Assembly (NCBI GenBank): GCA_963741095.1
Contig: CAVUGN010000005.1
Coordinates: 32,001-96,000, forward strand
Source: an uncultured Candidatus Micrarchaeota archaeon
GTDB lineage: Archaea; Micrarchaeota; Micrarchaeia; Micrarchaeales; Micrarchaeaceae
Length of the DNA stretch: 64,000 nucleotides
Direction: 5' to 3'
Under the pieces are notes generated by a model. It was not told where the DNA came from, searched no databases, and saw nothing but the letters and a program-made list of their open reading frames with translations. A program made the translations under genes and the position numbers. The stretch's first letter is position 1, and each line of letters starts with the position of its first letter. Shown one piece after another: positions 2,062 to 54,013 of the stretch.

Positions 2062-2133
2062 GGGCTCGTGGCGTAACGGTAGCGCGCCTGCATGGCATGT
2101 AGGAGGTTGCGGGTTCAAATCCCGCCGAGTCCA
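2062..2133 (+). tRNA. tRNA-Ala(GGC)
   Basis: Acceptor GGGCTCG/CGAGTCC (G3:U70), anticodon arm CCTGC-ATGGCAT-GTAGG, T-loop TTCAAAT. Confidence 0.93.
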
Positions 2134-3212: not shown

Positions 3213-3288
3213 CCTGCTCCCTTTATGAAGTCGTCAATTGGCTAATCCGGAAGCAAGCCTTAAATATCTTCCAAGCCGGTAGTATAAC

Positions 3289-3873: not shown

Positions 3874-3909
3874 ATGATGCAAGCACAATCTAATCTATGA
3901 TTGGGATCG

Positions 3910-4344: not shown

Positions 4345-4367
4345 GAGTAATTGCATGGGTGTAAAGC

Positions 4368-4928
4368 ATGGGTGTAAAAAAGATCGGGGAGAAAGCGGTT
4401 TTCAGGACAAGGAGGTTTACCGTCTTTGACGCTGAATTGGAGATGAACGGCAAGAGGGTGAGCAAACCGTACATAAAGCAAAACGATTGTTCAGAGATAC
4501 TTGCGATAAACGGGAAAGGGAATGTCGTGCTGATAAGGTCCTACAGGCCAGAAATCGATTGCTATGTGTATGAACTCCCCGCGGGCACGCTCAAGGATGG
4601 CGAGGACGCGAAGAGGGGCGCTATAAGGGAGCTTGAGGAGGAAACCGGGTATAGCGCGAGAAAGATTGAGTACCTTTTCGGCGGCTATCCGCTACTGGGC
4701 TATTCTGACTGCAAACTCCATTTCTTCCTTGCGACCGGCCTGAAGAGAAAAAAACAGAAACTCGAGGACGACGAGTCGATAACCGTCAGGGAATTCAGAC
4801 CTGGAGAGGTCCTGAAGATGATCAGGAAGGGCAGGATAAAGGACATGTGCGTCCTTACGGCAATGCAGCACTACTTCTATGTGCTTGATCAGGGCAGGAA
4901 GAGCGTCATGTACGCCGATCCCGATTGA
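4368..4928 (+). CDS. NUDIX hydrolase (ADP-ribose pyrophosphatase-like)
   Basis: ELPAGTLKDGEDAKRGAIRELEEETGY Nudix box. Confidence 0.92.
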   Translation: MGVKKIGEKAVFRTRRFTVFDAELEMNGKRVSKPYIKQNDCSEILAINGKGNVVLIRSYRPEIDCYVYELPAGTLKDGEDAKRGAIRELEEETGYSARKIEYLFGGYPLLGYSDCKLHFFLATGLKRKKQKLEDDESITVREFRPGEVLKMIRKGRIKDMCVLTAMQHYFYVLDQGRKSVMYADPD

Positions 4929-37737: not shown

Positions 37738-38997
37738 TCAGGTGCCGCCCTCCCAGCTCGTGAGGTAGCTCTCCTGCTCGTCCGTCAGGCTGTCTATCTT
37801 TATCCCCATCGCGTCCAGCTGGAGCTGCGCTATCCTCGCGTCGGCTTCCGGCGGCAGTGTCAGCACCGCAGGCTTCATCTTGCCCCTGTTGGCGCAGATG
37901 TACTCGCACGCAAGGACCTGGCCGCAGAAGCTCGTTGCCATGACCTCGCTGGGATGGCCTTCCGCAGCGGCAAGGTTGACCAGTCTTCCCTCTGCGCAGA
38001 GGTAGATCCTCTTTCCATCAACATCATACTCTTCCAACGAATCTCTTACCCGGCGCTTGGAAAACTTCTCGTTCATCCCAGCAACGTCGATCTCCACGTC
38101 GAAGTGGCCGGAGTTGGCGATTATCGCGCCGTCCTTCATTCTTGCGACGTGTTCAACTCTTATTATGTTCTTGTCCCCGGTTGCCGTGACGAAGATGTCG
38201 CCAAGCATCGCGGCCTCTGCCATCGGCATGACCCTGAAACCGTCCAACGCGGCCTGCAGCGCCTTGAAGTGGTCGACCTCCGTGACTATGACGTTCGCGC
38301 CCATGCCCTTCGCCCTCATCGCAAGGCCCTTGCCGCATGAGCCGTAACCGGCCACAACGAACTCCTTGCCCGCGATGAGCACGTTCGTCGCCCTCAGAAC
38401 GCCATCTATGCTTGATTGCCCTGTGCCATAGTAGTTGTCAAGAAGGTGCTTTGTCTGGTTGTCGTTCACCGCGATCACGGGGTACTTGAGCTTGCCCGCC
38501 TTCGCCATCGCCCTGAGCCTTATCACCCCGGTTGTGGTCTCCTCGCAGCCGCCCAGCATCTCCTTCAGGAGTTCCGGGTGCTTCTCATGTATCCTGGTCA
38601 CGAGGTCGCAGCCGTCGTCTATCGTCAGGTTCGGCTTCGACTCTATGACGCTGTCTATGAACTTGTAGTAATCCTCGACGCTCTCGCCCTTGTAGCCGAA
38701 GACGTGTATGCCCTCCTTCGCGAGCTGCGCGGCGACGTCGTCCTGGGTTGAAAGAGGATTGCAGCTGGCGATCGCGACGCTGGCGCCGCCGGCCATCAGC
38801 GTCCTGACCAGCACCGCGGTCTCCTTCGTGAGATGAAGCGCCATGCCTATCCTGACGCCCTTGAAGGGCAGGCTCTTCTTGAGCTGCTCCCTTATCTTGA
38901 TGAGCGCGGGCATGCGCATCTCCGCAAGCTCTATATTGAGCAGGCCCTTCTTCGCGAGGGCCATGTCCTTTACCGCGTACGTTGATGACTTGTCCAT
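37738..38997 (-). CDS. ahcY: Adenosylhomocysteinase
   Basis: SCNPLSTQD, EETTTG, DNYYGTGQS, GRLVNLAAAEGHP. Confidence 0.97.
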   Translation of the reverse strand: MDKSSTYAVKDMALAKKGLLNIELAEMRMPALIKIREQLKKSLPFKGVRIGMALHLTKETAVLVRTLMAGGASVAIASCNPLSTQDDVAAQLAKEGIHVFGYKGESVEDYYKFIDSVIESKPNLTIDDGCDLVTRIHEKHPELLKEMLGGCEETTTGVIRLRAMAKAGKLKYPVIAVNDNQTKHLLDNYYGTGQSSIDGVLRATNVLIAGKEFVVAGYGSCGKGLAMRAKGMGANVIVTEVDHFKALQAALDGFRVMPMAEAAMLGDIFVTATGDKNIIRVEHVARMKDGAIIANSGHFDVEIDVAGMNEKFSKRRVRDSLEEYDVDGKRIYLCAEGRLVNLAAAEGHPSEVMATSFCGQVLACEYICANRGKMKPAVLTLPPEADARIAQLQLDAMGIKIDSLTDEQESYLTSWEGGT

Positions 38998-39077
38998 GAG
39001 ATCACTTTTTGTCTAAATGCAATATGCCGAAGCCCATGCCTGCAGCGCCTGCAATCGCTCCGCTGCAGAAGGCGGGG

Positions 39078-40124
39078 CTATGCCGCTTTGGCCGTGAATG
39101 CCGCAATCTGCGAATAGATCGTGGCGCTTGTGCCGGTCCCTCCAGACTGCGTGCAGCTTCCCTTGCCTCCGACAACACCGGTTCCGGTCGTCGTGTAGTA
39201 GCACACCCAGATGTTGCCGGCTAGTGCGCTGCCGACAGGAACGCTGCCGCTGGCCGGGAACGTGACCGTTTCCTTCCCGCCAGTGGCGAGGGATCCGGTC
39301 ATCGCATAGAACTTGATGTTCGGCGCGCCGTTTGATGCCAGGCTTGTGCCGTTTGCCGCATACGCGACTCCCCAGCCGGTCCAGTTCGCGCCGGTGCTCT
39401 GCCCTATGGTTACGGTCAGTTGGCCGGTCGAGTTTGAGTACAGCATGTTGGAGCAGTAGTATCCCGCCTTTGCTACGCAGGTGGAGGCAAGAGAGGTGAG
39501 GATCGACTTGCCGAACGCACCGATGCCGAACAATGCGACCAGGCCGAAGGCCAGCACATCAGCCACTATGCCGATCAGCACAGCCGAGCCGATTATGATT
39601 ACGAAGGCCGCAAGCCTGCTTGTGCCGTGCATCTTCGCAATGGCGATTATCTCGATGATGAGGGACCATATCCCCAGGATGGCCAGTATCAGCGTCCCGA
39701 GAATAGGCACCAGTAGCAGCCAGAAGAAGAGCATCACGCTGCACGACGCATATACTATCGCGGAGAAGGTGTCATCGTATTTTCCCTTGAACGCCTTGAA
39801 GAGATTGCCGCCAATTGCCTGCAGTATGGCTGCGTTTATCAGGAGGCTTATTGGCTCTATCACCAGGAATAACAGCAGCACCAGCCCCATTATCGAAAAG
39901 ATCGAAAGGGATGAGAGGGCGCGCATGCCCGCCAGCGACATGATATCCCCAAGTAAAGAGCTCCCGATGTAAACCAGGACCAACGATATTATCATGGGTA
40001 TGAATACGAGCTTGTAGTAGTACTTCAGCGAATCTCCGACGCTCCTGCTCTTTGCGGCGCTGCTCGGGTGCAGCATCACGTTAAGCTGCTCCTTTATCTC
40101 GTCAATGAAGATCATCTCATGCAC
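39078..40124 (-). CDS. Yip1-like membrane domain fused to a pilin-like extracellular domain
   Basis: About five TM helices, then TCVAKAGYYCSN...VTIGQSTG..W resembling 40173-40715. Confidence 0.65.
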   Translation of the reverse strand: MHEMIFIDEIKEQLNVMLHPSSAAKSRSVGDSLKYYYKLVFIPMIISLVLVYIGSSLLGDIMSLAGMRALSSLSIFSIMGLVLLLFLVIEPISLLINAAILQAIGGNLFKAFKGKYDDTFSAIVYASCSVMLFFWLLLVPILGTLILAILGIWSLIIEIIAIAKMHGTSRLAAFVIIIGSAVLIGIVADVLAFGLVALFGIGAFGKSILTSLASTCVAKAGYYCSNMLYSNSTGQLTVTIGQSTGANWTGWGVAYAANGTSLASNGAPNIKFYAMTGSLATGGKETVTFPASGSVPVGSALAGNIWVCYYTTTGTGVVGGKGSCTQSGGTGTSATIYSQIAAFTAKAA

Positions 40125-40172
40125 CAGGGATAACTTCCAAGTAAGAATTTAAATAATGTTGCAAGCGGCGGA

Positions 40173-40715
40173 TCAGCTCGAGGTGGTTGCGACCGCGTTG
40201 AACTTTGCAATCTCGGTGAGCGCGTTCGTGGTCGTCGGGGTGGAGTACATGGCCCATACGCTGCCGGTCAGCTTGGTCTGGATCTTTATCGACTGCGTAG
40301 TTGCGCCGGGAAAATTGGGGTTTATGTACATCTGCACTGTCGCGGTCTGCCCTGATGTCAGAGACGAGATGAAGTAGGCGTGGCCCCACAGGCCGCCCCA
40401 GTACCCTATGCTGTTCGTCGAGCTATAATCGGATATGCTGGTGCCCGACAGCATCTGGCCCTGAGGCACTACGACAAACCAGACGTTTGACCAGGGTGTT
40501 GGCGATGTGACGCCTGCACCGAGGATTATGCTGGGGTCGCTGTACGCGTTGTTCACGTTCGCGCTTAACACGAGGTTATTGCAGAGGAAGCCCACATCGG
40601 CTATGCAGGTGCTTGTTGTGAAGTTGGTGCCGTTGAAGACGCCCAAGGAATAGAATGCGCCCAGGACCACCGCGAGTATCAGTATGGCCCAGCCGTAGGT
40701 CATCAGGTATTCCAT
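40173..40715 (-). CDS. Class III signal peptide (type IV pilin-like) protein
   Basis: In-frame RAQSA-MEYLMTYGWAILIL; true start unresolved. Confidence 0.8.
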   Translation of the reverse strand: MEYLMTYGWAILILAVVLGAFYSLGVFNGTNFTTSTCIADVGFLCNNLVLSANVNNAYSDPSIILGAGVTSPTPWSNVWFVVVPQGQMLSGTSISDYSSTNSIGYWGGLWGHAYFISSLTSGQTATVQMYINPNFPGATTQSIKIQTKLTGSVWAMYSTPTTTNALTEIAKFNAVATTSS

Positions 40716-40833
40716 CGCGGACTGGGCTCTCGTGAGCCTGGTGTCGGATGTCTGGTCGAGCTTGGCACCGGCATCGCATGCGCAAACTTTATGGGTTCTG
40801 ATAACATCACTGAATCTTCATACCCGTATCGCT

Positions 40834-43800
40834 TCAATCCTTGATCAGACTGTCCCCGGTGCCGGTTATGCTCTGGCTCGCTATGGTCGTATCGTGATAG
40901 TAGAGAGTGTTGTAGCTGCCGGTCATCTTCAGGTTTATGGTGCCTCCTATTGTGTGGAGGGTGTCGTAGCTTCCGGTCACGGTGAGGGCCATTGGCTTCG
41001 AAGTGAGCATGTTCAATGTCAGATCCACGTAGCTTCCAGTGAGCTGCAACGAATTGAGGGCCATGACCTGCACGCTCTCGACCAGGTTGGAGCTGCCGGT
41101 TATCGTGAACGCATTGCCGTTGATTGTCGCGCCGGATATCGTGTCCATGCTTCCCGTTATTGTCTGCGCCGAGAGTATGGTGTTGTGCATTGTTGTCGTG
41201 CCGTAGCTGCCGGTTTCCGTCAGGGTTATGGTGCCGTTGTAGATGTTTACATTGTCCACGCTCCCGGTCACCTGCACTGCGATGTTGCAGTTGCTGCCCG
41301 GCATGTTGATTGTTATGGTGTCGTGGCTCCCCGTGACGATCACTGCGCTTTGATCGGTCACTTGGACCGTACTGGTCAGATAGCTTCCGGTTATGCTGAT
41401 CGGTTTTCCGCTGTTGGAATTCGTGCAACCCTTCACTGGCGGCTGCGTGACCGTTATCACCGGTGTCGTTGCAGATGCTTTTTGACCGATCGAGTCGGTT
41501 GCGGTCACGGCGAATTGGCAGTTCGTTGACGTTGCGGACGGAGTGTACGAGAAGGACGCAGCGCTCGCCGAAACGAATCCAGGGCATGAATCTCCGGCTG
41601 GGACCGCCCACGAGTAGGACACTGCTCCAGTGCCGTTTGAAGCGATTGCAGTCACTGTCACCGGCACACCGACGTTAACTGATGTAGCAGAGGTGGGGGC
41701 CGATATTGATACGGTCAGTTGTTTGTTGATGGTTATCGTCGGAGTCGTAGCGGTTGCCTTTTTACCGAATGAGTCGGTCACAGTCACGGTGAATTGGCAA
41801 TTTACCGGTGCCGGTGCCTGATGGCAGTCTGGCATTGCTCCAGATTGGGTTGTTTGGGATGAAGTTGTTCCGGATGGAGTGTATGAAAAGGATGCTGTGT
41901 TTGCAGAAGTGAATCCTGGGCATGACGCTCCAGTTGAAACGGCCCACGAGTAGGACAATGGTGCTGTACCGCCTGATGCGCTTGCAGCCACAGTTATCGG
42001 CAGCCCTACATCTGCAGATGTTGCAGATGGAGGAGCGGTGATCACTACTGTCGGTAATGGATTGACCGTTATCGCATTGGTCGTAGCCGTGCCCATGCCC
42101 CCGACCGCATCTTTGACCGTCACGGTGAATTCGCAGGTTGATGTCGTACCCGATGGAGTGTAGGTAAACGACTTTGTTGTTGTGCTACTTTCAGTTCCTG
42201 GGCAGGCATGCCCAGCTGCAACCGACCATGAGTATGTTGATGTACCAGTGCCGCCCCCCACCGTGTTTGCGCTGATCGTGATCGGTACCCCGATGTCTGT
42301 CGGATTTGGCAGTACGGATGATATTGATACAGTTGGTTGTGGATTGACCGTTATCGTGGCGATGTTGGACTGTCCGGTGCCTCCGACAGAGTCGGTCACC
42401 GTTTCCTGCACCGTGTAGGTGCCGGATGTTGAGAAGGTCACTTTGTTGTTGTTTCCGAGAGTGCCCCCTGACAGCGTGTATGAATATGTGTACCCCGGCG
42501 TTCCCTGGGTCGTTGTGTTGCTGAATGCCACTGACTGTCCCGCATCGATAGTCTGTGATGTGGGCAGGATTGATATTGTCGGCAATGGATTGACCGTTAT
42601 CGTGGCGATGTTGGACTGTCCGGTGCCTCCGACAGAGTCGGTCACCGTTTCCTGCACCGTGTAGGTGCCGGATGTTGAGAAGGTCACTTTGTTGTTGTTT
42701 CCGAGAGTGCCCCCTGACAGCGTGTATGAATATGTGTACCCCGGCGTTCCCTGGGTCGTTGTGTTGCTGAATGCCACTGACTGTCCCGCATCGATAGTCT
42801 GTGATGTGGGCAGGATTGATATTGTCGGCAATGGATTGACCGTTATCGTGGCGATGTTGGACTGTCCGGTGCCTCCGACAGAGTCGGTCACCGTTTCCTG
42901 CACCGTGTAGGTGCCGGATGTTGAGAAGGTCACTTTGTTGTTGTTTCCGAGAGTGCCCCCTGACAGCGTGTATGAATATGTGTACCCCGGCGTTCCCTGG
43001 GTCGTTGTGTTGCTGAATGCCACTGACTGTCCCGCATCGATAGTCTGTGATGTGGGCAGGATTGATATTGTCGGCAATGGATTGACCGTTATCGTGGCGA
43101 TGTTGGACTGTCCGGTGCCTCCGACAGAGTCGGTCACCGTTTCCTGCACCGTGTAGGTGCCGGATGTTGAGAAGGTCACTTTGTTGTTGTTTCCGAGAGT
43201 GCCCCCTGACAGCGTGTATGAATATGTGTACCCCGGCGTTCCCTGGGTCGTTGTGTTGCTGAATGCCACTGACTGTCCCGCATCGATAGTCTGTGATGTG
43301 GGAGTTATCGAGATTGTCGGAGGCGTGGCCGTTAAGGGAAGCACGGTTATTGAGACGCTGTTGGACAGGGAAGCCTGGTTTTCATCCGTCAAAGTCTCAA
43401 TTAGGTCGTAGGTACCCGGACTTGTGAAAGTGAAGTCATTGTTTTGGGTGTACACGACTCCGTTTTGGGGTATAGTCATGTAAGAAAATGAGTAGGGCGT
43501 CAGGCCCGGGAAATTGATTGATCCGTTTACGGTGCTGTTGTATATGTGCACACCGCTCCCGACGTACACGGTGTACGATGAGGAGGTGATGGAGAACGCA
43601 AGGGCTGGATCTACTGCGATGTATGTCACAGTGCCTCCGGAATTTCCACTGCCGTCGGTTACGGCCAAATTTATCGTATCGGGAGAGGCAGTGTCTGAGC
43701 TATTGCCGAAAAATATTACGTTGCATGAGTTACCTGCAAAGGGGATTGTACCGACTTTGAAGTTGGTGTATGACCACAGACAATTGTAATTCCCGTCCCC

Positions 43801-43962
43801 GCCAGTTATGATGGTGGTGAGCAAGCTGTTTTGCCCGGCGGTCATCGAAGTTCTTTGTGATGTTAAAGTCACTCCGAGGCTGGCCTGTGCTAATGCCGGG
43901 GATAATGCTACAAACAGCAACGATGCCATGATAGAGATTGCCCACTTGTTCATGAAACTCAC
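40834..43962 (-). CDS. Large secreted surface protein with PKD/Ig-like repeats and C-terminal beta-solenoid-like repeats
   Basis: Signal peptide; four 82-aa repeats (GTYTVQETVTDS); repeated (I/V/L)TGSxx at the C-terminus. Confidence 0.88.
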   Translation of the reverse strand: MSFMNKWAISIMASLLFVALSPALAQASLGVTLTSQRTSMTAGQNSLLTTIITGGDGNYNCLWSYTNFKVGTIPFAGNSCNVIFFGNSSDTASPDTINLAVTDGSGNSGGTVTYIAVDPALAFSITSSSYTVYVGSGVHIYNSTVNGSINFPGLTPYSFSYMTIPQNGVVYTQNNDFTFTSPGTYDLIETLTDENQASLSNSVSITVLPLTATPPTISITPTSQTIDAGQSVAFSNTTTQGTPGYTYSYTLSGGTLGNNNKVTFSTSGTYTVQETVTDSVGGTGQSNIATITVNPLPTISILPTSQTIDAGQSVAFSNTTTQGTPGYTYSYTLSGGTLGNNNKVTFSTSGTYTVQETVTDSVGGTGQSNIATITVNPLPTISILPTSQTIDAGQSVAFSNTTTQGTPGYTYSYTLSGGTLGNNNKVTFSTSGTYTVQETVTDSVGGTGQSNIATITVNPLPTISILPTSQTIDAGQSVAFSNTTTQGTPGYTYSYTLSGGTLGNNNKVTFSTSGTYTVQETVTDSVGGTGQSNIATITVNPQPTVSISSVLPNPTDIGVPITISANTVGGGTGTSTYSWSVAAGHACPGTESSTTTKSFTYTPSGTTSTCEFTVTVKDAVGGMGTATTNAITVNPLPTVVITAPPSATSADVGLPITVAASASGGTAPLSYSWAVSTGASCPGFTSANTASFSYTPSGTTSSQTTQSGAMPDCHQAPAPVNCQFTVTVTDSFGKKATATTPTITINKQLTVSISAPTSATSVNVGVPVTVTAIASNGTGAVSYSWAVPAGDSCPGFVSASAASFSYTPSATSTNCQFAVTATDSIGQKASATTPVITVTQPPVKGCTNSNSGKPISITGSYLTSTVQVTDQSAVIVTGSHDTITINMPGSNCNIAVQVTGSVDNVNIYNGTITLTETGSYGTTTMHNTILSAQTITGSMDTISGATINGNAFTITGSSNLVESVQVMALNSLQLTGSYVDLTLNMLTSKPMALTVTGSYDTLHTIGGTINLKMTGSYNTLYYHDTTIASQSITGTGDSLIKD
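42340..43302. repeat. 246-bp perfect tandem repeat, about 3.9 copies
   Basis: Units start at 42340, 42586, 42832, 43078. Confidence 0.95.
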
Positions 43963-44160
43963 CCAATAACGTTACACTTTTGAAAGTTAATAATGTTGTG
44001 GTGAGGTAACGAAACTCGTTTGGCTGGGGGCAAAAATGCTTGAAAACGGAGGCCAGAAGAACGCGTCGCCGCTCTAACATGTCTTTTTGTTCGGAGTTGG
44101 CGGCGATCGGCAACCGAAAGATAGAAATATTATACAAATCACACAATATCGTGTGATCGA

Positions 44161-44592
44161 ATGTCGAAAACAGCGTTGTATGCCGAAGCAAAACTGCCGG
44201 TGCCGATTGGCAGGCCGCAGCATGCCACAGTGGACGGCCAGGAGTACAAGGCCCTAAGATTTGCGGAAGGCAAAGGCCCGGATTTGACAAAAACAAAAGC
44301 CATAGCAAGAATCGAGGGAGACGCAATGCCCACGACAGAAGACCCGAGAGAGATAGGCATCGCGTTGCTGAAGCCGGGGGAGTGGTGCTTCATTATCAAT
44401 AAAAACCCGGATGAGATGCCCATGGTCGCTGTGCTAGATTCCAAGGGTTACGTGTATTATGACGTTTATGATTACATCAAGCCCAACGGCGCCGCTCCCG
44501 TGGTGATTCTGAAGGAGACAGGCAACTCGACGAAGCCGCAAAGCCATCTGCTGCGCGAGGGCGATAGTTTGCAGAACCATCTGCGAAACTAG
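44161..44592 (+). CDS. Hypothetical protein
   Basis: 143-aa ORF with upstream TATA-like element. Confidence 0.65.
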   Translation: MSKTALYAEAKLPVPIGRPQHATVDGQEYKALRFAEGKGPDLTKTKAIARIEGDAMPTTEDPREIGIALLKPGEWCFIINKNPDEMPMVAVLDSKGYVYYDVYDYIKPNGAAPVVILKETGNSTKPQSHLLREGDSLQNHLRN

Positions 44593-44801
44593 AAACGCCC
44601 TAATCTCGAGAAGTTTCTAAGGAGCAGGATCAGGGATAAAGGCAGGTTGGAATGATTAAGCCAGGAGAGGGCTCTACCACCCGAGCATACCCTTTTGTTT
44701 GGGTAAGTCATGGTATCACTGCTTATCATGTTCCTTTAAATTTAAATAATCGTTGATTGTTTGCCCCACAATCGAAGCGATAAACTATTTATAGACATTT
44801 T

Positions 44802-46514
44802 TTAATTCCGCCTAAAGTTTTTAAAAACCGGATATACGGTTTCTTTTTCATTAATTTCTTTTATCACTTTATAATACGCATGCATAAATTCTTTATCGAG
44901 TCTTCTTTTTATCGACTCCCTTCTTGTTAATTTATCAATTTTATTGTGTATCATTCGTTTATTCTCGTTTATGCGTTTGGTCCATAAATTTGCTATTCTT
45001 TTATCGCCGTCTTTTATTTTATCCATACTTATTTCCCAAGACATGAAGTATTTGAGGTATTTGGCTGTCCATTGTAATATATCGCTTTCAACAGGATGAA
45101 ATATGGGTGCATTTTTGTTTATTCTTAGTGGCCAGTTGTTTATGCCTAAAGTTTTTAGAGTTTTAAAAGGTACGCTTAGCAATAGTAGCGCGGATATGTC
45201 AGTTCCAGGCATAGTTTTGCCACTTATCTCTTTATGGGATATATCCTCCCACCTAATTATTATGCCTCCGCCGTTATGAACAATACATCTCTGTTGCAAG
45301 CGCTTCAAACCTAAAAATGTGGAATTATGGATTGAATGCCATCTTGATACTGCTCTCCTAGAATCCACCATATAGCATGAGATTGCTTTGTTATTTTCTG
45401 AGGCAATTAGAATATTCAGATTTGATTGGAATATAGAAGTTTTCAATTTTATTCTATTATCTAGTTCGTCGTCCCATGTAGAGAAATAGGAGTTTTTTAG
45501 ATTTATTTTGTCTCTTTCCATTAATAGATTAAGATAATTTTTACATATATTTATACTATCCGAATTTGTAGCTACACATTTTTTGGGTGACTCTATGATG
45601 ATTACATTGTAATTTTGTGAGGGTCTTGTATCTGGAAAATTAACAAGTATTTTATCCATAGTGTCGTCAGTATTATTTACAAATATAGTAACATTGAAAA
45701 ATAATCTTTGTGATTTCTTCATCTCTTGGACTAAGAATTTTATGGACTTGACTATCGTTTCCGATGAATTTTTACAGGGTAGTATTATATTTATGAGCGG
45801 CTTGTTATTAGGGGGTTTCACAGATTTTATGCTAAAGACCTTATAATTTTTACCGTATATACGCAATTTTTTAATATTACGGTTATCGATTCCAAAATAA
45901 TCGTTACTTTTCGGATTTTTCGTTCGGTCCTGATGTTTATAATGTATTATTTCCTTTAGAAGGTCGTTTTTCAGGTTCGTGAAATAATTATGCACATATC
46001 TATCGCCCTTATTTCTTTTTGCTTCATCTATTATATTTTCGTCCATTTCACTTATTGCTTTATTCATATAATTTAATAGGACTTTTTTTGTATCTGACCA
46101 GGAGAAACTATTAGAATATTTGCTTATGCCAACATAATAAGAATCCGCGTTTTTATTTCTGCATATATCTATCCTTTCTTTTGCGTATCTTGACATGTGT
46201 TTAGGTAATAGGTCATAAGTAAAAAAATCTGTATTGGCGACCTCTTTATCTGGTTTCTTTTTGATAGCACCCCCAACAATCTTTATATTGTATATATGTG
46301 CAGTCCCATATCCTGAGGTAAATATGTTACCGAGATAATTCGTCACTTCGCCTTTAAATCCAGTCTCTTCCTCGAGTTCTCGTAGGGCGGCCTTTTTAGG
46401 TGATTCTCCTTTTTTGACTTCCCCTCCGGGAAGGTGCCAGTTCTTCGCGCCATAATTATGTTTCACAAGTAAAATTTTGCCATTGACATTTACATACCCA
46501 AACGCGGAAGTCAT
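44802..46514 (-). CDS. NUDIX hydrolase fused to a GT-A/GT2-like domain
   Basis: WHLPGGEVKKGESPKKAALRELEEETGF; later IILPCKNSSETI, VNNTDD, WDDE; start set at MTSAF. Confidence 0.7.
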   Translation of the reverse strand: MTSAFGYVNVNGKILLVKHNYGAKNWHLPGGEVKKGESPKKAALRELEEETGFKGEVTNYLGNIFTSGYGTAHIYNIKIVGGAIKKKPDKEVANTDFFTYDLLPKHMSRYAKERIDICRNKNADSYYVGISKYSNSFSWSDTKKVLLNYMNKAISEMDENIIDEAKRNKGDRYVHNYFTNLKNDLLKEIIHYKHQDRTKNPKSNDYFGIDNRNIKKLRIYGKNYKVFSIKSVKPPNNKPLINIILPCKNSSETIVKSIKFLVQEMKKSQRLFFNVTIFVNNTDDTMDKILVNFPDTRPSQNYNVIIIESPKKCVATNSDSINICKNYLNLLMERDKINLKNSYFSTWDDELDNRIKLKTSIFQSNLNILIASENNKAISCYMVDSRRAVSRWHSIHNSTFLGLKRLQQRCIVHNGGGIIIRWEDISHKEISGKTMPGTDISALLLLSVPFKTLKTLGINNWPLRINKNAPIFHPVESDILQWTAKYLKYFMSWEISMDKIKDGDKRIANLWTKRINENKRMIHNKIDKLTRRESIKRRLDKEFMHAYYKVIKEINEKETVYPVFKNFRRN

Positions 46515-46606
46515 TTTATCCCTTTTACACTGTGATATCAGAATAGCAACGCTTTTAATAAAGCTTCGCAAGCTAATGATAAAAAAGGTATGTTTACTTA
46601 TTTATA

Positions 46607-47308
46607 ATGTATTTATTGAACAAATCGCAGGAGGAGGATACGAAACGTGATTACAAGCTTGCAATATTTGATGTTGATGGTACATTATATAGATTACCTT
46701 CTGGTGCCACTAAATTTAGGGACACAGAAATGTATAATGAAGTACGGAATAGAGCTATAGGATTTCTCTCCAAACGGCTTTCTATTGGGAAAGATGAAGC
46801 AGAGGATACTTGGAATTGTATATATCACAAGTACAATGGCCACATAGATAGTGGTATCGAAAAAGACTATAATATCTCTAGGATCGAATACCTTTCAGAA
46901 GCATGGAACATATCTGCAGATAAGTATCTAAAACCGGACCCCGATATACGGAAGTTGTTGATTTCATTGAACATCCATAAAGCTATTTTATCATCTGCGC
47001 CAAAAGTTTGGGTGCACAGCGTTCTCAAGGCTATAGATTTAGGGGGTATTTTTGAATTTATCGTTACAGGGGATGAAAACGGAAGAAAGCCAGAGCGTAT
47101 GGCATATACTAGGGTATTGAGATATTTTAATGTGAAGCCAGAACAAGCGGTAATGATAGATGATGATATAGGGTATCTTAAAGGCGCCAAAGCGGTAGGT
47201 ATAGATACTACCTTTTTGATTAGTAATAAAGGTGTAGATACTAAGAATTCCAGCTTCGCTACTCATAGTATATCAAATCTTTTAGAATTGAGGAATTTCT
47301 TCGAGTAA
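46607..47308 (+). CDS. HAD-family phosphatase (nucleotidase-like)
   Basis: IFDVDGTLY, LSSA, RKP, MIDD. Confidence 0.88.
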   Translation: MYLLNKSQEEDTKRDYKLAIFDVDGTLYRLPSGATKFRDTEMYNEVRNRAIGFLSKRLSIGKDEAEDTWNCIYHKYNGHIDSGIEKDYNISRIEYLSEAWNISADKYLKPDPDIRKLLISLNIHKAILSSAPKVWVHSVLKAIDLGGIFEFIVTGDENGRKPERMAYTRVLRYFNVKPEQAVMIDDDIGYLKGAKAVGIDTTFLISNKGVDTKNSSFATHSISNLLELRNFFE

Positions 47309-48345
47309 AAGTCGCTGTTCTGAGAGAAGAGTTTAGAAGTAAATCTTTTTGCGTTAGGAAGGAATTGCGCATACCTCATCTGATGCTCGCTTAATAATTT
47401 TGTTGTAACTTTTATGCACCCTGTAATCAAATTTTTACCGCTAGGATCATTATTGCCCAGTGCAGTGCTTTCATAGCTATATTTTGTAAACCACTTTAGT
47501 ATATTGACTGGGAGATTGCTGCCCATATCTTTTTTTGAAACTCAGTTTTCTATAAAGTTTTGGATGTACATTGAACCGTCATCTAATTTTATGCTGTTTT
47601 GAGGCACACTTTTCCCCATTTTTGATCCTAAGATGCCTTGTAGCAGATTGCAGTAGGTGAAGCTTATTAAATTTTTGAATCCTCTTTTTTTTATGATTTC
47701 ATAGACAAGCTTTGCATGACTTATTTCGTCGATACCAAGTGTGACAAGTATGCCGTCATATTTGAATGATTCCGGGTATATTATATCGGCAGCCATTGCA
47801 AGAGAGGAGATGATCTCGCCTTTGTTTAGTTTTCTACCGTATAAACCTTCAAATTTTGATTTATTAATGAAGGAAGCTAAATTTAATGCAATTTTTAATG
47901 TTTGTATATTCCTACTTTGTAAGTATATTTTTGAATTTCTGATGTTCACTCCAGCTGCCATCAAATGCGCTATTAATTTCGGTGTTATCTCCCTTATGTC
48001 TTTGTCTGATTTGTTTCTTACGCAAGTTGCTTCTATATCTGCTATTGGTATGAATAATTCGGCGTTGTAGATTTTTTGATAATACGCCATCTGCTGTAAG
48101 ATACATAAAGTGCCAAGATGTGGTATCCCGCTCGGCATAAATCCGCTAACAAGAGAAACCCTTTTACCGTTAGAGGCTAATTCTAGCCATCCGTCAAAGT
48201 TGTTATGTCCTATGATTAGACCTCTTTTTGAGAAATTAGGTCTTTCCTTAAGATCGAAGTTGAATGGATTTATCTTTAGCTTAGCACGCATTCTGGCGTA
48301 TTGTAGGTTATCCACTTTTGGTACACTCCATGCGTCGAACTCCAT
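47263..48345 (-). pseudogene. Divergent TrpRS-like protein interrupted by an in-frame TGA at 47542-47544
   Basis: SGFMPSGIPHLGT, IADIEA, AADI, GIDE, KMGKS; frame continues into ORF 47263-47526. Confidence 0.65.
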
Positions 48346-48361
48346 TGTTTAACCTGATGAG

Positions 48362-49333
48362 TTATTTGCAATCAAATATAATCTTTCCATATTTCTGTTT
48401 AAGCATTACATCCAATGCTCTGTCAGAATCCTTAAGATAAAAACGATGTGTTATTATTCGGCCTAAAATCTTTTGTTTTTTCAAAGCAAGCTGGATTGCC
48501 CAATCAAAATCTTTTGGGGTGTAGCCTAGTTGCGTATAGATACTTGCTTCCTTGTTGATAACTCCACTTATGTCTACCGTAAATTTATTTATCATGCATG
48601 CACTTTCGAGTATTACACCATTGGGCTTTACATACCTTGATGCGTCAGCATAAGATTCTGGACTCCCACCTGCATCATAAACAAAATCAAATCGATCTAT
48701 TAGTTTTTCATTATTCGCCCCTTTTTCATAGAATTTGTCTATTACACTTCCAAGAAGTGATGCCTGTTCCTTATGCCCCACCATCGATATCCTTCCGGGA
48801 TTTTTGCTACTGGCATGTATCGCTCCAACAAGTCCTATCGCTCCAGATCCTATTATCAATAGTTCTTTGCCCTCCAAGTCCAAATTATGTAATGGTTTTG
48901 TGCTGGCTATTGTTTCGACCAGTACAGCCGTTCTTGTTTTTAGAGCATCAGGAACTTTTACCAGAATTGTTCCCTTAGGGATTATTGAATGTGTTGCCCA
49001 ACCACCAGCATACCTATTTTTTGTTGTTAAGCCAAACACTTGATTTTGTATGCAAGCATTATACCTTCCATTTTTGCAATTTACACACTTATTGCAGGGT
49101 ATTATTGCGGGCCATATGTAACGTTCTCCATCTAATTCCCCAACGCACTCGTGACCTAATACTCGTGGAAGGTTTATCCCTTTTACATCTCCTTTTATAA
49201 TATGTTTATCGGTTCCACAAACTCCACAAAAGAGCATTTTAATTAGTTCTTCATTCTTACTTTTAATTGATTTATAGTTCACTTTATTCCTGCCTTCCAC
49301 CAATAAAGCCCCCCATTCATTCAAGGATAGCAC
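48362..49333 (-). CDS. Zinc-dependent medium-chain alcohol/sugar dehydrogenase
   Basis: CGVCGTD, LGHE, CNKCVNC..G..NAC, GSGAIG. Confidence 0.9.
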   Translation of the reverse strand: MLSLNEWGALLVEGRNKVNYKSIKSKNEELIKMLFCGVCGTDKHIIKGDVKGINLPRVLGHECVGELDGERYIWPAIIPCNKCVNCKNGRYNACIQNQVFGLTTKNRYAGGWATHSIIPKGTILVKVPDALKTRTAVLVETIASTKPLHNLDLEGKELLIIGSGAIGLVGAIHASSKNPGRISMVGHKEQASLLGSVIDKFYEKGANNEKLIDRFDFVYDAGGSPESYADASRYVKPNGVILESACMINKFTVDISGVINKEASIYTQLGYTPKDFDWAIQLALKKQKILGRIITHRFYLKDSDRALDVMLKQKYGKIIFDCK

Positions 49334-50464
49334 CTAACATATCCCCATCTTTTCTACAATGTTTACAATGTCTACTCCATCATTTTTCATTAATATTTCA
49401 TCTATGTCTTTTGGTTTGACTTTAGCATAGCGCGCAGCAAGTTTGTCGACCTTATCTAAAACTTTTTCTAGCAGCAGCTTCTTCATATCTCCGCTCAGAA
49501 TCTCACCTTTCTTGTACGTTTCGTATAGTTTTTTGCTCTCTTGCTCTTCCAAGAAGTAATATTTCAGGTAGATGTAAGCGACATCATTTTCTGGTATCCC
49601 TCCATACTTTTTGTGTTCTTCGATACTGGTCCTCCCTCCGCTAAAAGCTTTCATTACCTTCTTCATAATTTCGCTTCTGTTTTCAAGGAGGAATATGGCA
49701 TTGTTTTTTGATTTTGACATTTTTGATCCGTCTATTCCGGGAAGGAATTTATTGTGAAGAACTGCAGGGGGGTTGTATCCATATTTGGCCGCGACGTCTC
49801 TGCAGACTCTTAAGTGTGCATCTTCATCAGGTCCGATTGGAACCAGTACATTCTTAATCCCAAGTGTTTGAGGGAATAATACGTGTGCCGCTTGTACCGA
49901 AGGATAGAAATGGAGGCCCACACTCTCGCTATTTTTATAGTCGTATACTGCATTTATTGTAGAAAGAGTTATGCCCTTAGAGAGCTTTATTGCAAAATTG
50001 TAAATATTGGTATATATTTGGTCTATTATTACCTTCGTCTTGTCTTTGTCAAATCCGTACGCTACTAGACTTTTTGTTAGTATCAAAGCATTTTTCAATG
50101 CTTCCTCCTGTGTCGCTACCTTCCTTGTTACATAGCTCTCATCGTCGGATATTGGTATAAATGTTTCGACTCCGTGTGTCTTCTGAAAGTTCTGTATTGT
50201 ATCAAATATGCCCATATGCCCTATGTGGAGAGTTCCGCTGGGATTTAAGCCCGATACGATTGCACTTTTTTCCCCTTTCAATAATCTACCGTAAAATTTA
50301 TCGAAATCCCTATGAGAGTAGAGTAAGCCATTCTTGAAAGCCTTGAATTCGGGTACTTTATCTAAATCTTTTACTCTAAGAGCGCCAAATTGTCGTACTA
50401 GTTTTTCCGTTTCGATTTCCAATAAATCGATAAGGTACTTTTTGTCATTGGTATCTTCTTCCAT
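49334..50464 (-). CDS. trpS: Tryptophanyl-tRNA synthetase (archaeal type)
   Basis: HRDF, SGLNPSGTLHIGH, SDDE, KMSKS, AFSGGR...H...GG. Confidence 0.85.
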   Translation of the reverse strand: MEEDTNDKKYLIDLLEIETEKLVRQFGALRVKDLDKVPEFKAFKNGLLYSHRDFDKFYGRLLKGEKSAIVSGLNPSGTLHIGHMGIFDTIQNFQKTHGVETFIPISDDESYVTRKVATQEEALKNALILTKSLVAYGFDKDKTKVIIDQIYTNIYNFAIKLSKGITLSTINAVYDYKNSESVGLHFYPSVQAAHVLFPQTLGIKNVLVPIGPDEDAHLRVCRDVAAKYGYNPPAVLHNKFLPGIDGSKMSKSKNNAIFLLENRSEIMKKVMKAFSGGRTSIEEHKKYGGIPENDVAYIYLKYYFLEEQESKKLYETYKKGEILSGDMKKLLLEKVLDKVDKLAARYAKVKPKDIDEILMKNDGVDIVNIVEKMGIC

Positions 50465-50579
50465 CTCTCTCAGCTCTTATTAAATCTTAATACGCCCAAA
50501 TTTTGGGCACTGATTATCTATTGTAGCGCTAGCTCCTTAAATCTAATGTTTTGTTAGATTTTGTTTATACACTTGACAT

Positions 50580-51419
50580 TTAATTAATCCTTTTACCTAT
50601 TATAAAACCTATCCTGCTTCTCAATTTTGTTTTATAAGGTTTGGTGAAATTTACTTCGAAACCAGAACTTTCGAGTTTTTTTAATAATGGGATATAACCA
50701 TAATGGTATTCGATGAGTATCCCTTTAAATTTCCTTAAGGTCTCTGTAGTTTCGTAAATCAAGTTATATTCGCACCCTTCGCAATCCATTTTAAGCAGCC
50801 CGTCTTTTATTTTAAATTTCTCTACGATGGTCTTAAGGGTGTTTATTTTAATTTGCTTACCTTTTTCAGATTCGATGATGGTATCGCTCGCACTGCTCTT
50901 ATAGTAAGGATCTATTTTTATATAACAATCTATTCTACCATATCCCTCATTTAATAACGTAATCTTTTTTAATAAGTTATTTGTTTTCAGGTTCTTCAGG
51001 GCCACAGAATATGTGTATGGATAGGGCTCAAACGCGTATACATGTTTTGCGGAAGACATTGCAAAATAAATGGCTGAATCCCCGATATTTGCTCCAATAT
51101 CGATTACCGAAGCGTTACGTAAGCGTATTTTAGAGTAGTTTTGCATAATAAATTGTTCATAGATCATAGCTAACGTATTGGATATGAGTTTACTTTTTCC
51201 GCCATGATAAAATTTAAGCACTCTGTTTTTAAAACGAAATTCGGTGTATAGATTGTTTATTTTTATTTTTGATTGTCCTTTCCTAGTTTGGATTAATATT
51301 TGATTTTCTAGTTTAGTACTAATCGATAAAATTTCTTCTGAGAATTTAGAGATAACTTCTAAAAACGGCGTAATTTTCGAATCCTCTTTGGCGGTTATGG
51401 TAAAACCTAGTTTTTCCAT
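50580..51419 (-). CDS. FkbM-family methyltransferase
   Basis: VIDIGANIGDSA, AFEP, LKMDCEGCE, IEYH. Confidence 0.9.
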   Translation of the reverse strand: MEKLGFTITAKEDSKITPFLEVISKFSEEILSISTKLENQILIQTRKGQSKIKINNLYTEFRFKNRVLKFYHGGKSKLISNTLAMIYEQFIMQNYSKIRLRNASVIDIGANIGDSAIYFAMSSAKHVYAFEPYPYTYSVALKNLKTNNLLKKITLLNEGYGRIDCYIKIDPYYKSSASDTIIESEKGKQIKINTLKTIVEKFKIKDGLLKMDCEGCEYNLIYETTETLRKFKGILIEYHYGYIPLLKKLESSGFEVNFTKPYKTKLRSRIGFIIGKRIN

Positions 51420-51511
51420 ACCTAATTGTTTTAATGTTCTACCTTTTATTTGAGATTTTTGTATATGATCATCCGGTATGGCAAAGGCGATCTCAACACA
51501 AATTTATGACT

Positions 51512-52636
51512 TTATCTATTTGCCTTTATATGTAAGAATGGAATATTAATCTCATCACGCGAAAGACCGCCGTGCTCCGCCTTCCAATTCCATCCATGTG
51601 AAGGGAAACTGGGCTTAGTAGCGATTGCGACTATGTCACCAATCTCGTCAAAATGTGATGGGTCAAATCCGAATAACTTTTTAAGTTCTTTATCAGTTCT
51701 TCTAAATACAACACCGGATGAGCCAACTTGTTTTTTAATATCCAAAAAAGCTGCATCTGATTTACTGTATATGTAACGTGCTCTTCCGACACCGCCAGCT
51801 TCACAATAGATAAGATTTTTGATCTTTTCTAAATTTAGCTTCTTTGTATTTTTCTGGTCTATCTGTCCATGATCCGAAACAAAGAGGTAATCATAGCTTG
51901 GATTTTTATTTATGATTTCCGAGATAAGGATGGAGCTCATTTCGAGTAATTTTTGGGTTTTATTATTTTTAACTCCGAATATATGCATTATTTCATCAAA
52001 ATCAACGAAAACGCATAAAACAGAGGGACCCTCTTCTTCTATTAGATTTTCCGCCTTTCTGAAAAGTTCTCTTAGTTCTTCCTTATAATTACGATTATCT
52101 TCAGGTCCGATAAGGGGTATCTTTATACGTAAAGATTCCCCGAGAATTTCATCCCACAAAGACGAGCTTAACCATGGTAGAGCAAGACTCAAGAAGACGG
52201 GGTCTGATTTCGAGTACTCTAAGAACGAATGAATCTTGCCACTTTTTTTATATCGTTTGTTTTTTATTTTTTGGCCGTTCAGGCCAGTAACTCGGTCACT
52301 CATTAGACTAAACAATCCTTTATCTTTGCGGGAATAGAATGCAGTTCCCAATAGTTTATGTTTATCGGGTTTCACGCCAAAAAATATAGAGGGGTATGCG
52401 GTGTATGTCCCAGTAGGGAAGTTGCTATTAAAACATTTTAGATTGCGGAGGTTTATCCTATTATTAAAATGCTTTTTAAATTCGAAATAATTGAGGGAAT
52501 CAAATAAGAAGATGACCTTTTTGGTATCTTTCACCATTTGGCTTTTTAGATACCGACCAATTACATCTGGGGTTTTTTTAGAGTTCGGCACTTCCAATCC
52601 AGAATTGATATTCTTTATTGATTCTCTCTTTACCAT
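51512..52636 (-). CDS. Alkaline phosphatase superfamily (nucleotide pyrophosphatase/phosphodiesterase-like)
   Basis: FLFDS, FPTGT, D...H..G, SDHGQ, HGGLS..E..IP. Confidence 0.82.
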   Translation of the reverse strand: MVKRESIKNINSGLEVPNSKKTPDVIGRYLKSQMVKDTKKVIFLFDSLNYFEFKKHFNNRINLRNLKCFNSNFPTGTYTAYPSIFFGVKPDKHKLLGTAFYSRKDKGLFSLMSDRVTGLNGQKIKNKRYKKSGKIHSFLEYSKSDPVFLSLALPWLSSSLWDEILGESLRIKIPLIGPEDNRNYKEELRELFRKAENLIEEEGPSVLCVFVDFDEIMHIFGVKNNKTQKLLEMSSILISEIINKNPSYDYLFVSDHGQIDQKNTKKLNLEKIKNLIYCEAGGVGRARYIYSKSDAAFLDIKKQVGSSGVVFRRTDKELKKLFGFDPSHFDEIGDIVAIATKPSFPSHGWNWKAEHGGLSRDEINIPFLHIKANR

Positions 52637-53015
52637 ATTAATGATTTGGGGGGTAGTAATTTATATCCGACTCCAGTTTTCCCACCATGTGGGTCAAAAT
52701 TTTCTAGGGAATCTGCTTTAGGGTCATTCTTCAATTATCAAGACCAAAGTATACTTGGCGGCTTCCAATTGGCACTGGATGGACCGTTGCGCTATATCAA
52801 TTTTCAAATCGGAACGCGTACATAAAATTTAGCATGGAGGTATACGGGACCGTCGAAAAGACAACGGCAGCATGCAAATCACGAAGGGCTAAAGAATGGG
52901 GCTATTGGTGAAGGAATGACTGCCGGTATAGTTAGAGGCATATTTGTAGCATGATTCAAAGGGAGAAGGAGATGATTACAGGCAATTCGAATTGTTTGTG
53001 ATGCACTTAGCGGCG

Positions 53016-53870
53016 TTACAACTTTGATGCCCTTTTGGGGTGGAGCGGTTCACTTTTTTCGTTTACTTCTTTTACCACTTTTAGGAGGGAGTTATAGACC
53101 CTGAGTTTAGTAGTTTCGAAGATTAGAGCATTCAAATCTTTCGGCAAACAGCTTCCTCCAAACGGACCTCTGCTCGGATCTAGATGGCTCGAACCAATCC
53201 GCCTATCCAAACCAACTATTTTCATTACACAAATAGGGTCCACATGCATTCGTCTGCATATTACGCCCATCTGATTGGCGAAAGAGACTTTTGTTGCTAA
53301 AAACGAATTGGATGCATATTTTGCAAGTTCTGCGGTATTGGGATCTACTACAATTACGTGTTTTGTGAATCCTTTGTATAAATTGCACAATTTTTTAATC
53401 GCTTTAGTGTCATACCCACCTATAACTATCCTATCTGGATGTAAGAAGTCTTTATATGAATTACTAGCTGTTAAAAACTCTGGATTAAACAGTACTTCAA
53501 CATTTGTAGTTCTCGCTTGCACCATTCTAATTAATTTGTCAGTAGTTCCAACCATAATTGTGGACTTAACTACTATTATCGTCCTTCGCTTACATACGGC
53601 GGCAATTTCCCGAATCATTTTGTAGACTATACTAGAATTGTTGCTACCGTCACGATTTTGGGTGGTTGGTACGCACACAAATATAATTTCGGAGTTATCA
53701 ACTAACTTCTCAAGCTTGTTGTATACCGTATATCCTTTTGTTTTAGCATTCTTAAACGCTACGCATGAGATATCGTATACGCATATGGTATGGCCTAGTT
53801 TTCCAAACCCATTGGCTACTGCTGAGCCAACATAACCAAATCCAACTATCCCAAGGCGCATCGTATTCAA
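53016..53870 (-). CDS. UDP-glucose/GDP-mannose dehydrogenase family, short form
   Basis: GFGYVG, VCVPT, KST, NPEFL, AELAKY, GGSCLPKD; no C-terminal domain. Confidence 0.88.
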   Translation of the reverse strand: MNTMRLGIVGFGYVGSAVANGFGKLGHTICVYDISCVAFKNAKTKGYTVYNKLEKLVDNSEIIFVCVPTTQNRDGSNNSSIVYKMIREIAAVCKRRTIIVVKSTIMVGTTDKLIRMVQARTTNVEVLFNPEFLTASNSYKDFLHPDRIVIGGYDTKAIKKLCNLYKGFTKHVIVVDPNTAELAKYASNSFLATKVSFANQMGVICRRMHVDPICVMKIVGLDRRIGSSHLDPSRGPFGGSCLPKDLNALIFETTKLRVYNSLLKVVKEVNEKSEPLHPKRASKL

Positions 53871-53921
53871 CTCATTTATCTATATATAGGGCGGACATTG
53901 GATGGTAAGCTGGAGTAGTCG

Positions 53922-54013
53922 AGCCAGGAGAGGGATTTTCGTGTTGATATTAACATATCGAACCCCCCTGTGTCGCTCTGCAGGCGACCGCATAGCCTAT
54001 CTGCCATCCTGGC
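53922..54013 (-). tRNA. tRNA-Cys(GCA) with 21-nt intron (53936-53956) at position 59/60
   Basis: Acceptor GCCAGGA/TCCTGGC with U73, anticodon arm GTCGC-CTGCAGA-GCGAC, BHB motif in the T-loop. Confidence 0.9.

Follow-up and report, generated by a model that had tools for sequence, protein, structure and literature searches.

A conserved module of a tryptophanyl-tRNA synthetase, its diverged paralog and a Zn-dependent dehydrogenase in a low-GC island of a Micrarchaeota archaeon

What would a second tryptophanyl-tRNA synthetase (TrpRS), packed against a dehydrogenase and a diverged paralog of TrpRS, be doing in a low-GC island of an archaeal genome? The question is raised by a stretch of 64,000 nucleotides (the window, G000:C5:32001-96000) from an uncultured Candidatus Micrarchaeota archaeon, whose assembly (G000) comprises 1.08 Mb in 11 contigs and is 94% complete. 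The original prediction, drawn from the letters alone, had taken eight island genes as one cluster for a Trp-adenylate mimic or an aminoacylated sugar or nucleotide, with self-resistance. Here we report that the conserved unit consists of a TrpRS, the TrpRS-derived paralog (hereafter WRS-like) and a dedicated Zn-dependent dehydrogenase, sometimes joined by a methyltransferase. The idea of an inhibitor with self-resistance, narrowed to this trio, is the reading that fits best: with a probability that we put at roughly 40%, the module would be a mobile pathway for a tryptophan-derived, TrpRS-directed compound, with a co-carried TrpRS that is either insensitive or a back-up.

A second TrpRS and the genes conserved beside it

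Four class Ic synthetase genes are present in G000, namely a tyrosyl-tRNA synthetase, a canonical TrpRS of type A (G000:C5:178433-179335; E 1.7e-89 to human TrpRS), the island TrpRS of type B (E 1.4e-55 to yeast TrpRS) and WRS-like. The housekeeping trpS that had been expected elsewhere is therefore in place, and the island TrpRS is a second copy rather than the sole trpS. The island enzyme has hundreds of relatives at 52-62% identity, named as TrpRS of Micrarchaeota, Marsarchaeota, Thermoplasmataceae, Methanothrix and Nanoarchaeia. Most of 40 related genomes carry a single TrpRS, which belongs either to type A or to type B. For G006, G010 (one contig), G020, G033, G037 and G011 the only TrpRS found is of type B, which a family-model search confirmed for G006, G010, G020 and G011; G010 (96% complete), G006 and G020 each hold two class Ic genes, the type B TrpRS and one other, and G011 (88% complete) holds a type B TrpRS, WRS-like and one other. 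Judged by sequence, type B is an ordinary archaeal TrpRS clade.

This bears on the motif shared by both synthetases. The DE that replaces DQ in both synthetases is present as described (GPDE in the TrpRS, GIDE in the paralog), but GPDE is invariant throughout type B, and since this type is the sole TrpRS of several relatives, the motif is a clade trait and not a sign of resistance. The island TrpRS, which is intact with both signature motifs as predicted (Table 1), does not differ at any motif position from sole-copy type B enzymes, and the view of it as a resistant-looking copy was not borne out. The clade is near free of tryptophan: of 21 sequences, 19 have no Trp and two have a single one, against 1-6 in types A, C and C'. 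From genus to genus within one family, type A alternates with type B, and type B copies with in-frame stops occur in G009:C22 and G018:C6, as does a fragment with one in-frame stop in G030:C19; all three genomes keep a type A TrpRS. These patterns suggest recurrent gain and loss of type B, and whatever the function of the module, such alternation inside one archaeal family offers a clear example of a synthetase being replaced. An extra TrpRS beside the housekeeping one is found in G000 (A and B) and in G007 (A, B1 and B2), and not in G011, which has the module TrpRS only.

A metagenome scan with the WRS-like alignment returned 80 loci, of which L075-L138 were screened by tblastn alone; with the exception of L125, these hold ordinary TrpRS at no more than 33% identity and gave no dehydrogenase or methyltransferase match. 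The resulting set comprises 20 WRS-like loci (G000, G007, G011, 16 metagenome loci and the remnant L125). The dehydrogenase adjoins WRS-like in 17 of the 20, the exceptions being two loci at contig ends (L073, L074) and L125; a TrpRS adjoins it in 18 (L059 and L067 are cut contigs); and an S-adenosylmethionine (SAM) methyltransferase of one family is present in nine. Near-duplicate contigs aside, no other neighbour recurs among the loci examined. Conserved co-occurrence elsewhere, as the original prediction implied, is thus found for the trio, but not for the eight genes as one cluster: the genes for a type I phosphodiesterase (NPP), a HAD phosphatase and a Nudix protein recur solely in the related island of G007, and the FkbM-family methyltransferase and the truncated sugar dehydrogenase have no counterpart in G007 or in the metagenome loci examined.

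G007 belongs to a different genus of the same family and has an island, also low in GC, whose genes run in the same order and whose products are 67% (NPP), 80% (type B TrpRS), 68% (dehydrogenase), 65% (WRS-like), about 50% (HAD, 49-52%) and 53% (Nudix protein) identical to those of the window. WRS-like is intact there (351 aa), and the island also holds Fic and low-molecular-weight phosphatase genes and a second, divergent type B TrpRS. It ends at a tRNA-Thr(CGT), with 11- and 14-nt repeats of the tRNA-Thr 3' end at its far side. Within G007:C6:68000-101000, three full TrpRS genes (type A, B1 and the divergent B2) and WRS-like lie within 20 kb of each other; in B2 the His and Arg that are conserved past the DED motif have been lost, and two nested repeats of the tRNA-Thr end lie on either side of the Fic-domain gene.

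The order of the genes varies between TrpRS-dehydrogenase-WRS-like and TrpRS-(methyltransferase)-WRS-like-dehydrogenase. G011 has a type B TrpRS, the SAM methyltransferase and WRS-like, with the dehydrogenase divergently placed. The L060 module abuts a tRNA-Ser, and a DDE transposase follows the modules of L061 and L069; from such tRNA ends and transposases we read the modules as mobile. At L072, where GC is 0.66, WRS-like, the dehydrogenase and a bacterial-type TrpRS are encoded by mutually overlapping genes, which are flanked by radical-SAM/SPASM, PhyH dioxygenase, enolase-superfamily and thiamine diphosphate (ThDP) enzymes and an ABC exporter. L125 (9944-11290) has a type B TrpRS followed by the first ~97 codons of WRS-like, with no dehydrogenase, and appears to be a decayed module. 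On the 104-kb contig L071, an archaeal 23S and 16S rRNA operon (1-4422) lies ~3.6 kb from a TrpRS-methyltransferase-WRS-like-dehydrogenase module, which places that module on the chromosome of an archaeon.

The partners of WRS-like are not of one kind. In a quick maximum-likelihood tree (IQ-TREE, with SH-aLRT support), the partner TrpRS fall into type B (G000, G007, G011, L064, L068) and a long-stemmed clade C' (L060-L071, L062, L074), and bacterial-type partners are seen at L072 and L074 (Pfam, 237 and 213 bits). Given that the partner TrpRS is of three types, the linkage follows TrpRS function and not one inherited block. Clade C' partners have E changed to D, and mostly also D to E, at otherwise invariant active-site positions. 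The dehydrogenase belongs to a rare subfamily with 11 matches, all at least 51% identical, and its alignment has a mean column identity of 65% with invariant Zn-ligand Cys, His and Glu columns. Even if its function differs from the one proposed here, the trio is a well-defined, rare and conserved module.

The TrpRS-derived paralog

WRS-like has 36 matches among 5.8 billion proteins; among 1.84 billion, about nine cluster representatives exceed 240 bits and are followed by a tail of divergent GxDE paralogs. It occurs in 3 of the 401 sampled genomes of the phylum, at 437-453 bits against 194 bits for the next best, and a scan of viral contigs with its alignment gave 20 pattern matches and zero relatives. 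The family is monophyletic (SH-aLRT 99), with a mean column identity of 57%, and is placed with type C/C' and Aeropyrum pernix-like enzymes at a support of just 84-87. Its divergence, which had been read from HLGT and KMGKS, is confirmed by both motifs and by the curated trpS model, under whose cut-off it falls (TIGR00233, 90.6 against 176.75 bits); it also scores far below the cut-offs of the PRK12285 sub-models.

Despite this distance the fold is kept. An AlphaFold2 model (pLDDT 82.7) matches full-length TrpRS structures at TM 0.77-0.80, C-terminal helical domain included. Invariant residues comprise H76 and G78 of the HIGH motif, K242, M243, K245 and S246 of KM(G/S)KS, the ribose-binding Asp and the M-A-A-D-I helix; the HxGS/T variant of WRS-like occurs too in sole-copy type C TrpRS. 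In Bacillus stearothermophilus TrpRS, Met129 and Asp132 read the indole nitrogen, according to a preprint (bioRxiv 10.64898/2026.03.23.713518). This Met/Asp pair is kept in WRS-like, and the substrate therefore likely carries an indole.

A comparison of 24 WRS-like sequences with TrpRS clades A, B, C and C' reveals where the paralog departs from all four. The Q of the specificity helix is changed to M, DQD or DED to DEI, and RD to K/x, the Q to M and D to I changes being found in at least 90% of the 24. WRS-like also lacks the AFSGG..GG segment after KMSKS and the C-terminal G..K, both universal in the four clades. The two changed Gln positions presumably help to hold the alpha-amino group in human TrpRS. 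A cyclodipeptide synthase was considered as an identity for WRS-like and rejected, since Pfam gives just PF00579 and the ATP motifs are kept.

The window copy is cut by a TGA at 47542-47544, after which the frame stays open for 87 codons to a C-terminus like that of G007; a profile match runs over residues 2-349 with the one TGA (451 bits). Contigs of siblings from four runs of one study were compared over 47200-50500, and two differences were found in 3.3 kb, both in the TGA codon, which reads TGG in X2 (Trp, as in G007) and CGA in X1 (Arg), with one contig each at depth 2-3; the X3 and X4 contigs do not reach the codon. Recoding was rejected as an explanation because TGA is the commonest stop of G000, ending 407 of 796 long open reading frames (ORFs), and the other island genes have no in-frame TGA. 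The stop may be a null allele in an otherwise open population, or a consensus chimera of the CGA and TGG alleles.

Such damage raises the question of whether these genes share any function. They might be decaying cargo in which the xenologous TrpRS is the sole working part, caught in the replacement of type A by type B, and its neighbours are hitchhikers by common descent. The stop in the window copy, the truncated sugar dehydrogenase, the integrase not found, the TrpRS of L125 with its WRS-like remnant and no dehydrogenase, and the stops and fragments in type B copies of G009, G018 and G030 all fit this account. It is nevertheless very unlikely, as the three genes stay together although their order varies and the TrpRS comes from three types, sequence conservation of WRS-like and the dehydrogenase is strong, and each of the two sibling contigs that span the stop codon, site of the sole two sibling differences, has a sense codon there.

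The full-length fold with its C-terminal helical domain invites another explanation, in which the target of WRS-like, as a second synthetase or a GluQRS-like transferase, would be tRNA-Trp or some other RNA; the dehydrogenase and methyltransferase would prepare the Trp or Trp derivative that it uses, and the operon, instead of making an inhibitor, would tune tryptophan encoding or metabolism under stress or scarcity. The retained ATP motifs and indole-reading residues and the TrpRS neighbour in 18 of 20 loci are consistent with it, and Trp-free type B enzymes would suit Trp scarcity; a similar reading was favoured by Mukai et al. for clusters of TrpRS-A with TrpRS-A-like and ORF1 (PMC5370408). 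Set against this are the loss of the AFSGG..GG segment and the C-terminal G..K, and the failure to find a tRNA-Trp or unusual tRNA in 19 loci with ARAGORN or in 14 with Rfam, which intron-bearing tRNAs can escape. Presence in 3 of 401 genomes further indicates that WRS-like is dispensable, and neither the polyol-type dehydrogenase nor the surroundings of the module at L072, which resemble a biosynthetic gene cluster, would be explained. We regard a tRNA-directed role as possible, though rather unlikely. Highly improbable is a more radical version in which WRS-like has acquired a new synthetase specificity, so that, with the dehydrogenase and, in loci that have it, the methyltransferase, it makes a modified tryptophan or an indole hydroxy-acid that it loads onto tRNA, as a mobile extension or sabotage of tryptophan decoding that carries its own TrpRS.

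Island boundaries and the remaining genes

GC content is 0.34-0.40 across 44659-53934 (2-kb windows) and 0.52-0.58 in the flanks, which delimits an island of 9.3 kb. The exact 13-mer AGCCAGGAGAGGG stands at both ends, where it coincides with the GC drop, and has no further exact copy in the window. The direct repeat continues weakly past this core on the side downstream of the tRNA (44641-44658 against 53904-53921, 74% over 31 nt). The right-hand copy is the 3' end of a tRNA-Cys, which ARAGORN and Rfam both fail to detect at 53922-54013; G001, G010 and G006 share both the tRNA and its insert (four of six aligned copies, the rows of G002 and G007 being incomplete in the alignment). The T-loop is a non-canonical intron position, and the inserts of these three genomes occupy the same place and differ in length.

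In the sister genome G001, homology to the window runs from the tRNA end at 53921 (88% identity over 1280 nt), the DNA past the tRNA-Cys matches window 38728-40164, and the island has no counterpart at that site. The tRNA-Cys island stands as originally described: the tRNA is real, repeats and GC drop match 44659-53934, and its acquisition follows from the low GC, the direct repeats of the tRNA end and the absence of the island at the tRNA-Cys of G001. No integrase family was found in Pfam, PHROGs and PADLOC scans of the island proteins and of two G007 proteins of no assigned family. Very probably, then, 44659-53934 is a horizontally acquired island at the tRNA-Cys 3' end with no recognisable integrase and partly decayed cargo, and it looks like an old insertion.

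G001 also lacks window 40165-44658 at the tRNA-Cys, so that the total difference (13.7 kb) extends beyond the low-GC 9.3 kb. This 4.5-kb segment, of host-like GC, lies between a Yip1-like gene and the island and has ORFs of 180 aa, of 1042 aa (a PKD-repeat protein with a 246-nt tandem periodicity) and of 143 aa; it may have entered at this tRNA earlier than the island, or have been deleted in G001. Whole-genome ARAGORN on G000 gives 28 tRNAs (33 in intron mode), none for Trp or Cys, and one odd four-base anticodon call (cgaa) at C2:57224-57314; many tRNAs of G000 probably have unusual introns.

All eight ORFs lie where they had been placed, and Pfam and NCBIfam support seven of the eight labels (Table 1). 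The exception is the fusion of a Nudix domain with a glycosyltransferase (GT), of which the Nudix half is upheld and the GT half is not: the C-terminal part has no Pfam match even at E<=5, and a weak GT2 lead from language-model features (0.93, 142-153 shared features) was not confirmed. The tight packing of the trio was described correctly, as the start of the dehydrogenase gene abuts the TrpRS stop and 16 nt separate its own stop from the start of WRS-like. The nucleotide-sugar dehydrogenase lacks its C-terminal UDP-binding domain, and no remainder was seen in 52640-53015. As for defence-system or phage membership, PADLOC and PHROGs gave just domain-level matches for the Nudix, HAD, Zn-dependent dehydrogenase and methyltransferase proteins.

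Table 1. Coordinates of the island features within the window.
Feature	Position	Strand	Remarks
Left 13-nt direct repeat	44659..44671		Equals last 13 nt of tRNA-Cys; far island end; GC drop starts here
Nudix protein, 589 aa	44802..46571	-	PF00293 at residues 27-124, E 2.9e-17; C-terminal ~460 aa of no assigned family
HAD-IA phosphatase	46607..47308	+	Nearest named model pyrimidine 5'-nucleotidase, below cut-off
WRS-like (TrpRS-derived paralog)	47263..48345, including 87 codons past TGA; called ORF 47542-48345, 267 aa	-	HLGT, KMGKS
Zn-dependent dehydrogenase	48362..49333	-	Polyol/threonine-dehydrogenase branch, medium-chain dehydrogenase/reductase (MDR) superfamily
Type B TrpRS, intact, 376 aa, zero Trp residues	49334..50464	-	LHIGH, KMSKS; TIGR00233 230 bits (cut-off 176.75)
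FkbM-family SAM methyltransferase	50580..51419	-	Pfam/NCBIfam
Type I phosphodiesterase/NPP	51512..52636	-	PF01663, 30.6 bits (cut-off 23)
Truncated nucleotide-sugar (UDP-glucose-type) dehydrogenase, 284 aa	53016..53870	-	N-terminal and central domains; model positions 58-296 of 413
Right 13-nt direct repeat	53922..53934		Equals tRNA-Cys 3' end
tRNA-Cys(GCA)	53922..54013	-	T-loop insert of ~20 nt; integration target; read from sequence; G001 homology starts exactly at 53921

The sugar-related genes suggest a further explanation, the aminoacylation of a sugar or nucleotide for the cell surface. WRS-like would then resemble MshC, a CysRS-derived ligase, and would join Trp to a sugar or polyol acceptor from the dehydrogenase, with the NPP, HAD and Nudix proteins and the sugar dehydrogenase supplying or trimming nucleotide-sugar intermediates. 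The place of the dehydrogenase among polyol, sugar-alcohol and threonine dehydrogenases, the recurrence of the NPP, HAD and Nudix genes in the same order in the G007 island and the GT2-like lead are in its favour. We consider it clearly unlikely, given that these sugar-related genes are absent from the other 18 loci, that the sugar dehydrogenase is truncated, that Pfam offers no support for the GT and that an obligatory TrpRS neighbour would have no reason.

Proposed function and comparison with known systems

In the reading that we prefer, WRS-like would bind ATP and an indole-bearing substrate and would no longer be a standard TrpRS. With the help of the dehydrogenase, and in some loci of the methyltransferase, it would yield a tryptophan-derived small molecule aimed at TrpRS, which could mimic Trp or Trp-adenylate or be an acceptor that has been aminoacylated. 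The TrpRS carried alongside would keep the carrier translating, as immunity or back-up, and may also supply Trp-tRNA. The genes would travel as a toxin-plus-antidote package among DPANN archaea and beyond.

This pathway for a TrpRS-directed compound is favoured because the combination of a synthetase, its diverged paralog and tailoring enzymes matches the ascamycin and SB-203208 clusters, because both known clusters for TrpRS inhibitors hold an extra TrpRS and the indolmycin enzymes are similar in category, because the trio at L072 is surrounded by genes for an ABC exporter and for radical-SAM, dioxygenase and ThDP enzymes, and because the modules are mobile and TrpRS types alternate among close relatives.

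Several observations weigh against it. Exporter genes are missing from the archaeal loci, whose biosynthetic content stops at two or three enzymes, so that any product must derive from common metabolites, and a context like that of a biosynthetic gene cluster is found on one contig, L072. G011, at 88% completeness, has the module TrpRS alone, and the extra copy is hence not universal. Cluster-linked type B TrpRS have the same motifs as sole-copy type B enzymes, which means that any insensitivity would be clade-wide. The window copy of WRS-like carries an in-frame stop, and the NPP, HAD, Nudix, FkbM and truncated sugar dehydrogenase genes lie outside the conserved unit. According to its model, WRS-like keeps the whole TrpRS fold with the C-terminal helical domain and could act on tRNA; and for the TrpRS-A/TrpRS-A-like/ORF1 clusters, Mukai et al. 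(PMC5370408) give preference to tryptophan metabolism and encoding.

If correct, our proposal would make this the first archaeal pathway built on the logic of an aminoacyl-tRNA synthetase (aaRS) paralog and an insensitive aaRS, so far known from producers such as Streptomyces. It would be unusually compact, at three to four genes, and mobile among genome-reduced DPANN archaea. It would imply chemical warfare or addiction around tryptophan charging in episymbiont communities, and would offer a new class Ic-derived ligase and possibly a new TrpRS inhibitor scaffold.

The closest chemical precedents are the clusters for the TrpRS inhibitors indolmycin (ind) and chuangxinmycin (cxn). Each of the two has an extra TrpRS (Ind0 and ats4186, respectively), and the indolmycin branch employs a SAM C-methyltransferase, an NADH ketoreductase and an ATP-dependent coupling enzyme (PMC8246080, PMC5925218). 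The module is alike in having the TrpRS gene within the cluster and enzyme categories that match the indolmycenic-acid branch. It differs in that the places of Ind2 and Ind3 are taken by an MDR Zn-dehydrogenase and a class Ic aaRS paralog, for which homology to them is not established, and in the absence of an aminotransferase, an arginine branch and a P450. Its hosts, moreover, are DPANN archaea, in which it comprises three to four genes in tRNA-integrated islands.

The pairing of a working synthetase with a diverged paralog of the same synthetase in one cluster is found in the ascamycin cluster, with the AlaRS AcmD and the divergent AlaRS-like transferase AcmF, and in that of SB-203208, where SbzA is an extra IleRS and a transferase that also serves self-resistance (PMC12945691). 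The paralog in these pathways passes the amino acid on to a small molecule, a mimic of an aminoacyl-adenylate (PMC12945691). Unlike WRS-like, the enzymes concerned are AlaRS and IleRS relatives in Streptomyces; in AcmF the ATP-binding residues are lost, whereas WRS-like keeps HxG and KMxKS, and the module loci have no nucleoside-sulfamate genes.

Among solved structures, the closest relative of WRS-like is the TrpRS of A. pernix (PDB 3A04; E 1.2e-51 against 2.2e-20 for the next; TM 0.77), with which it shares GFMPSG, IADxEA and AADIL. Relative to this enzyme, WRS-like has Q changed to M, DQD to DEI and KMSSS to KMGKS, lacks AFSGG..GG and has a rebuilt C-terminal domain.

In the literature on TrpRS paralogs, self-resistance biosynthetic gene clusters and horizontal transfer of aaRS genes in Micrarchaeota (figures and supplements being outside the scope), no description of a TrpRS/TrpRS-like/Zn-dehydrogenase module was found. 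The nearest published system is that of Mukai, Reynolds, Crnkovic and Soll (2017; PMC5370408), who describe clusters of TrpRS-A with TrpRS-A-like and ORF1 in DPANN archaea and candidate phyla radiation (CPR) bacteria, and note Trp-free TrpRS-A1 and ORF1 proteins in CPR bacteria. The likeness extends to an extra TrpRS and a TrpRS-like homolog beside a canonical TrpRS, to an occurrence in DPANN archaea and on putative bacterial contigs, and to proteins free of Trp. Those clusters are defined by other partners, namely ORF1, which has no similarity to known proteins, and a tRNA-Trp(A73), whereas in the module the partner is a Zn-dehydrogenase, joined in some loci by a methyltransferase, and the loci searched yielded no tRNA-Trp. 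WRS-like may nonetheless overlap the TrpRS-A-like protein of that system.

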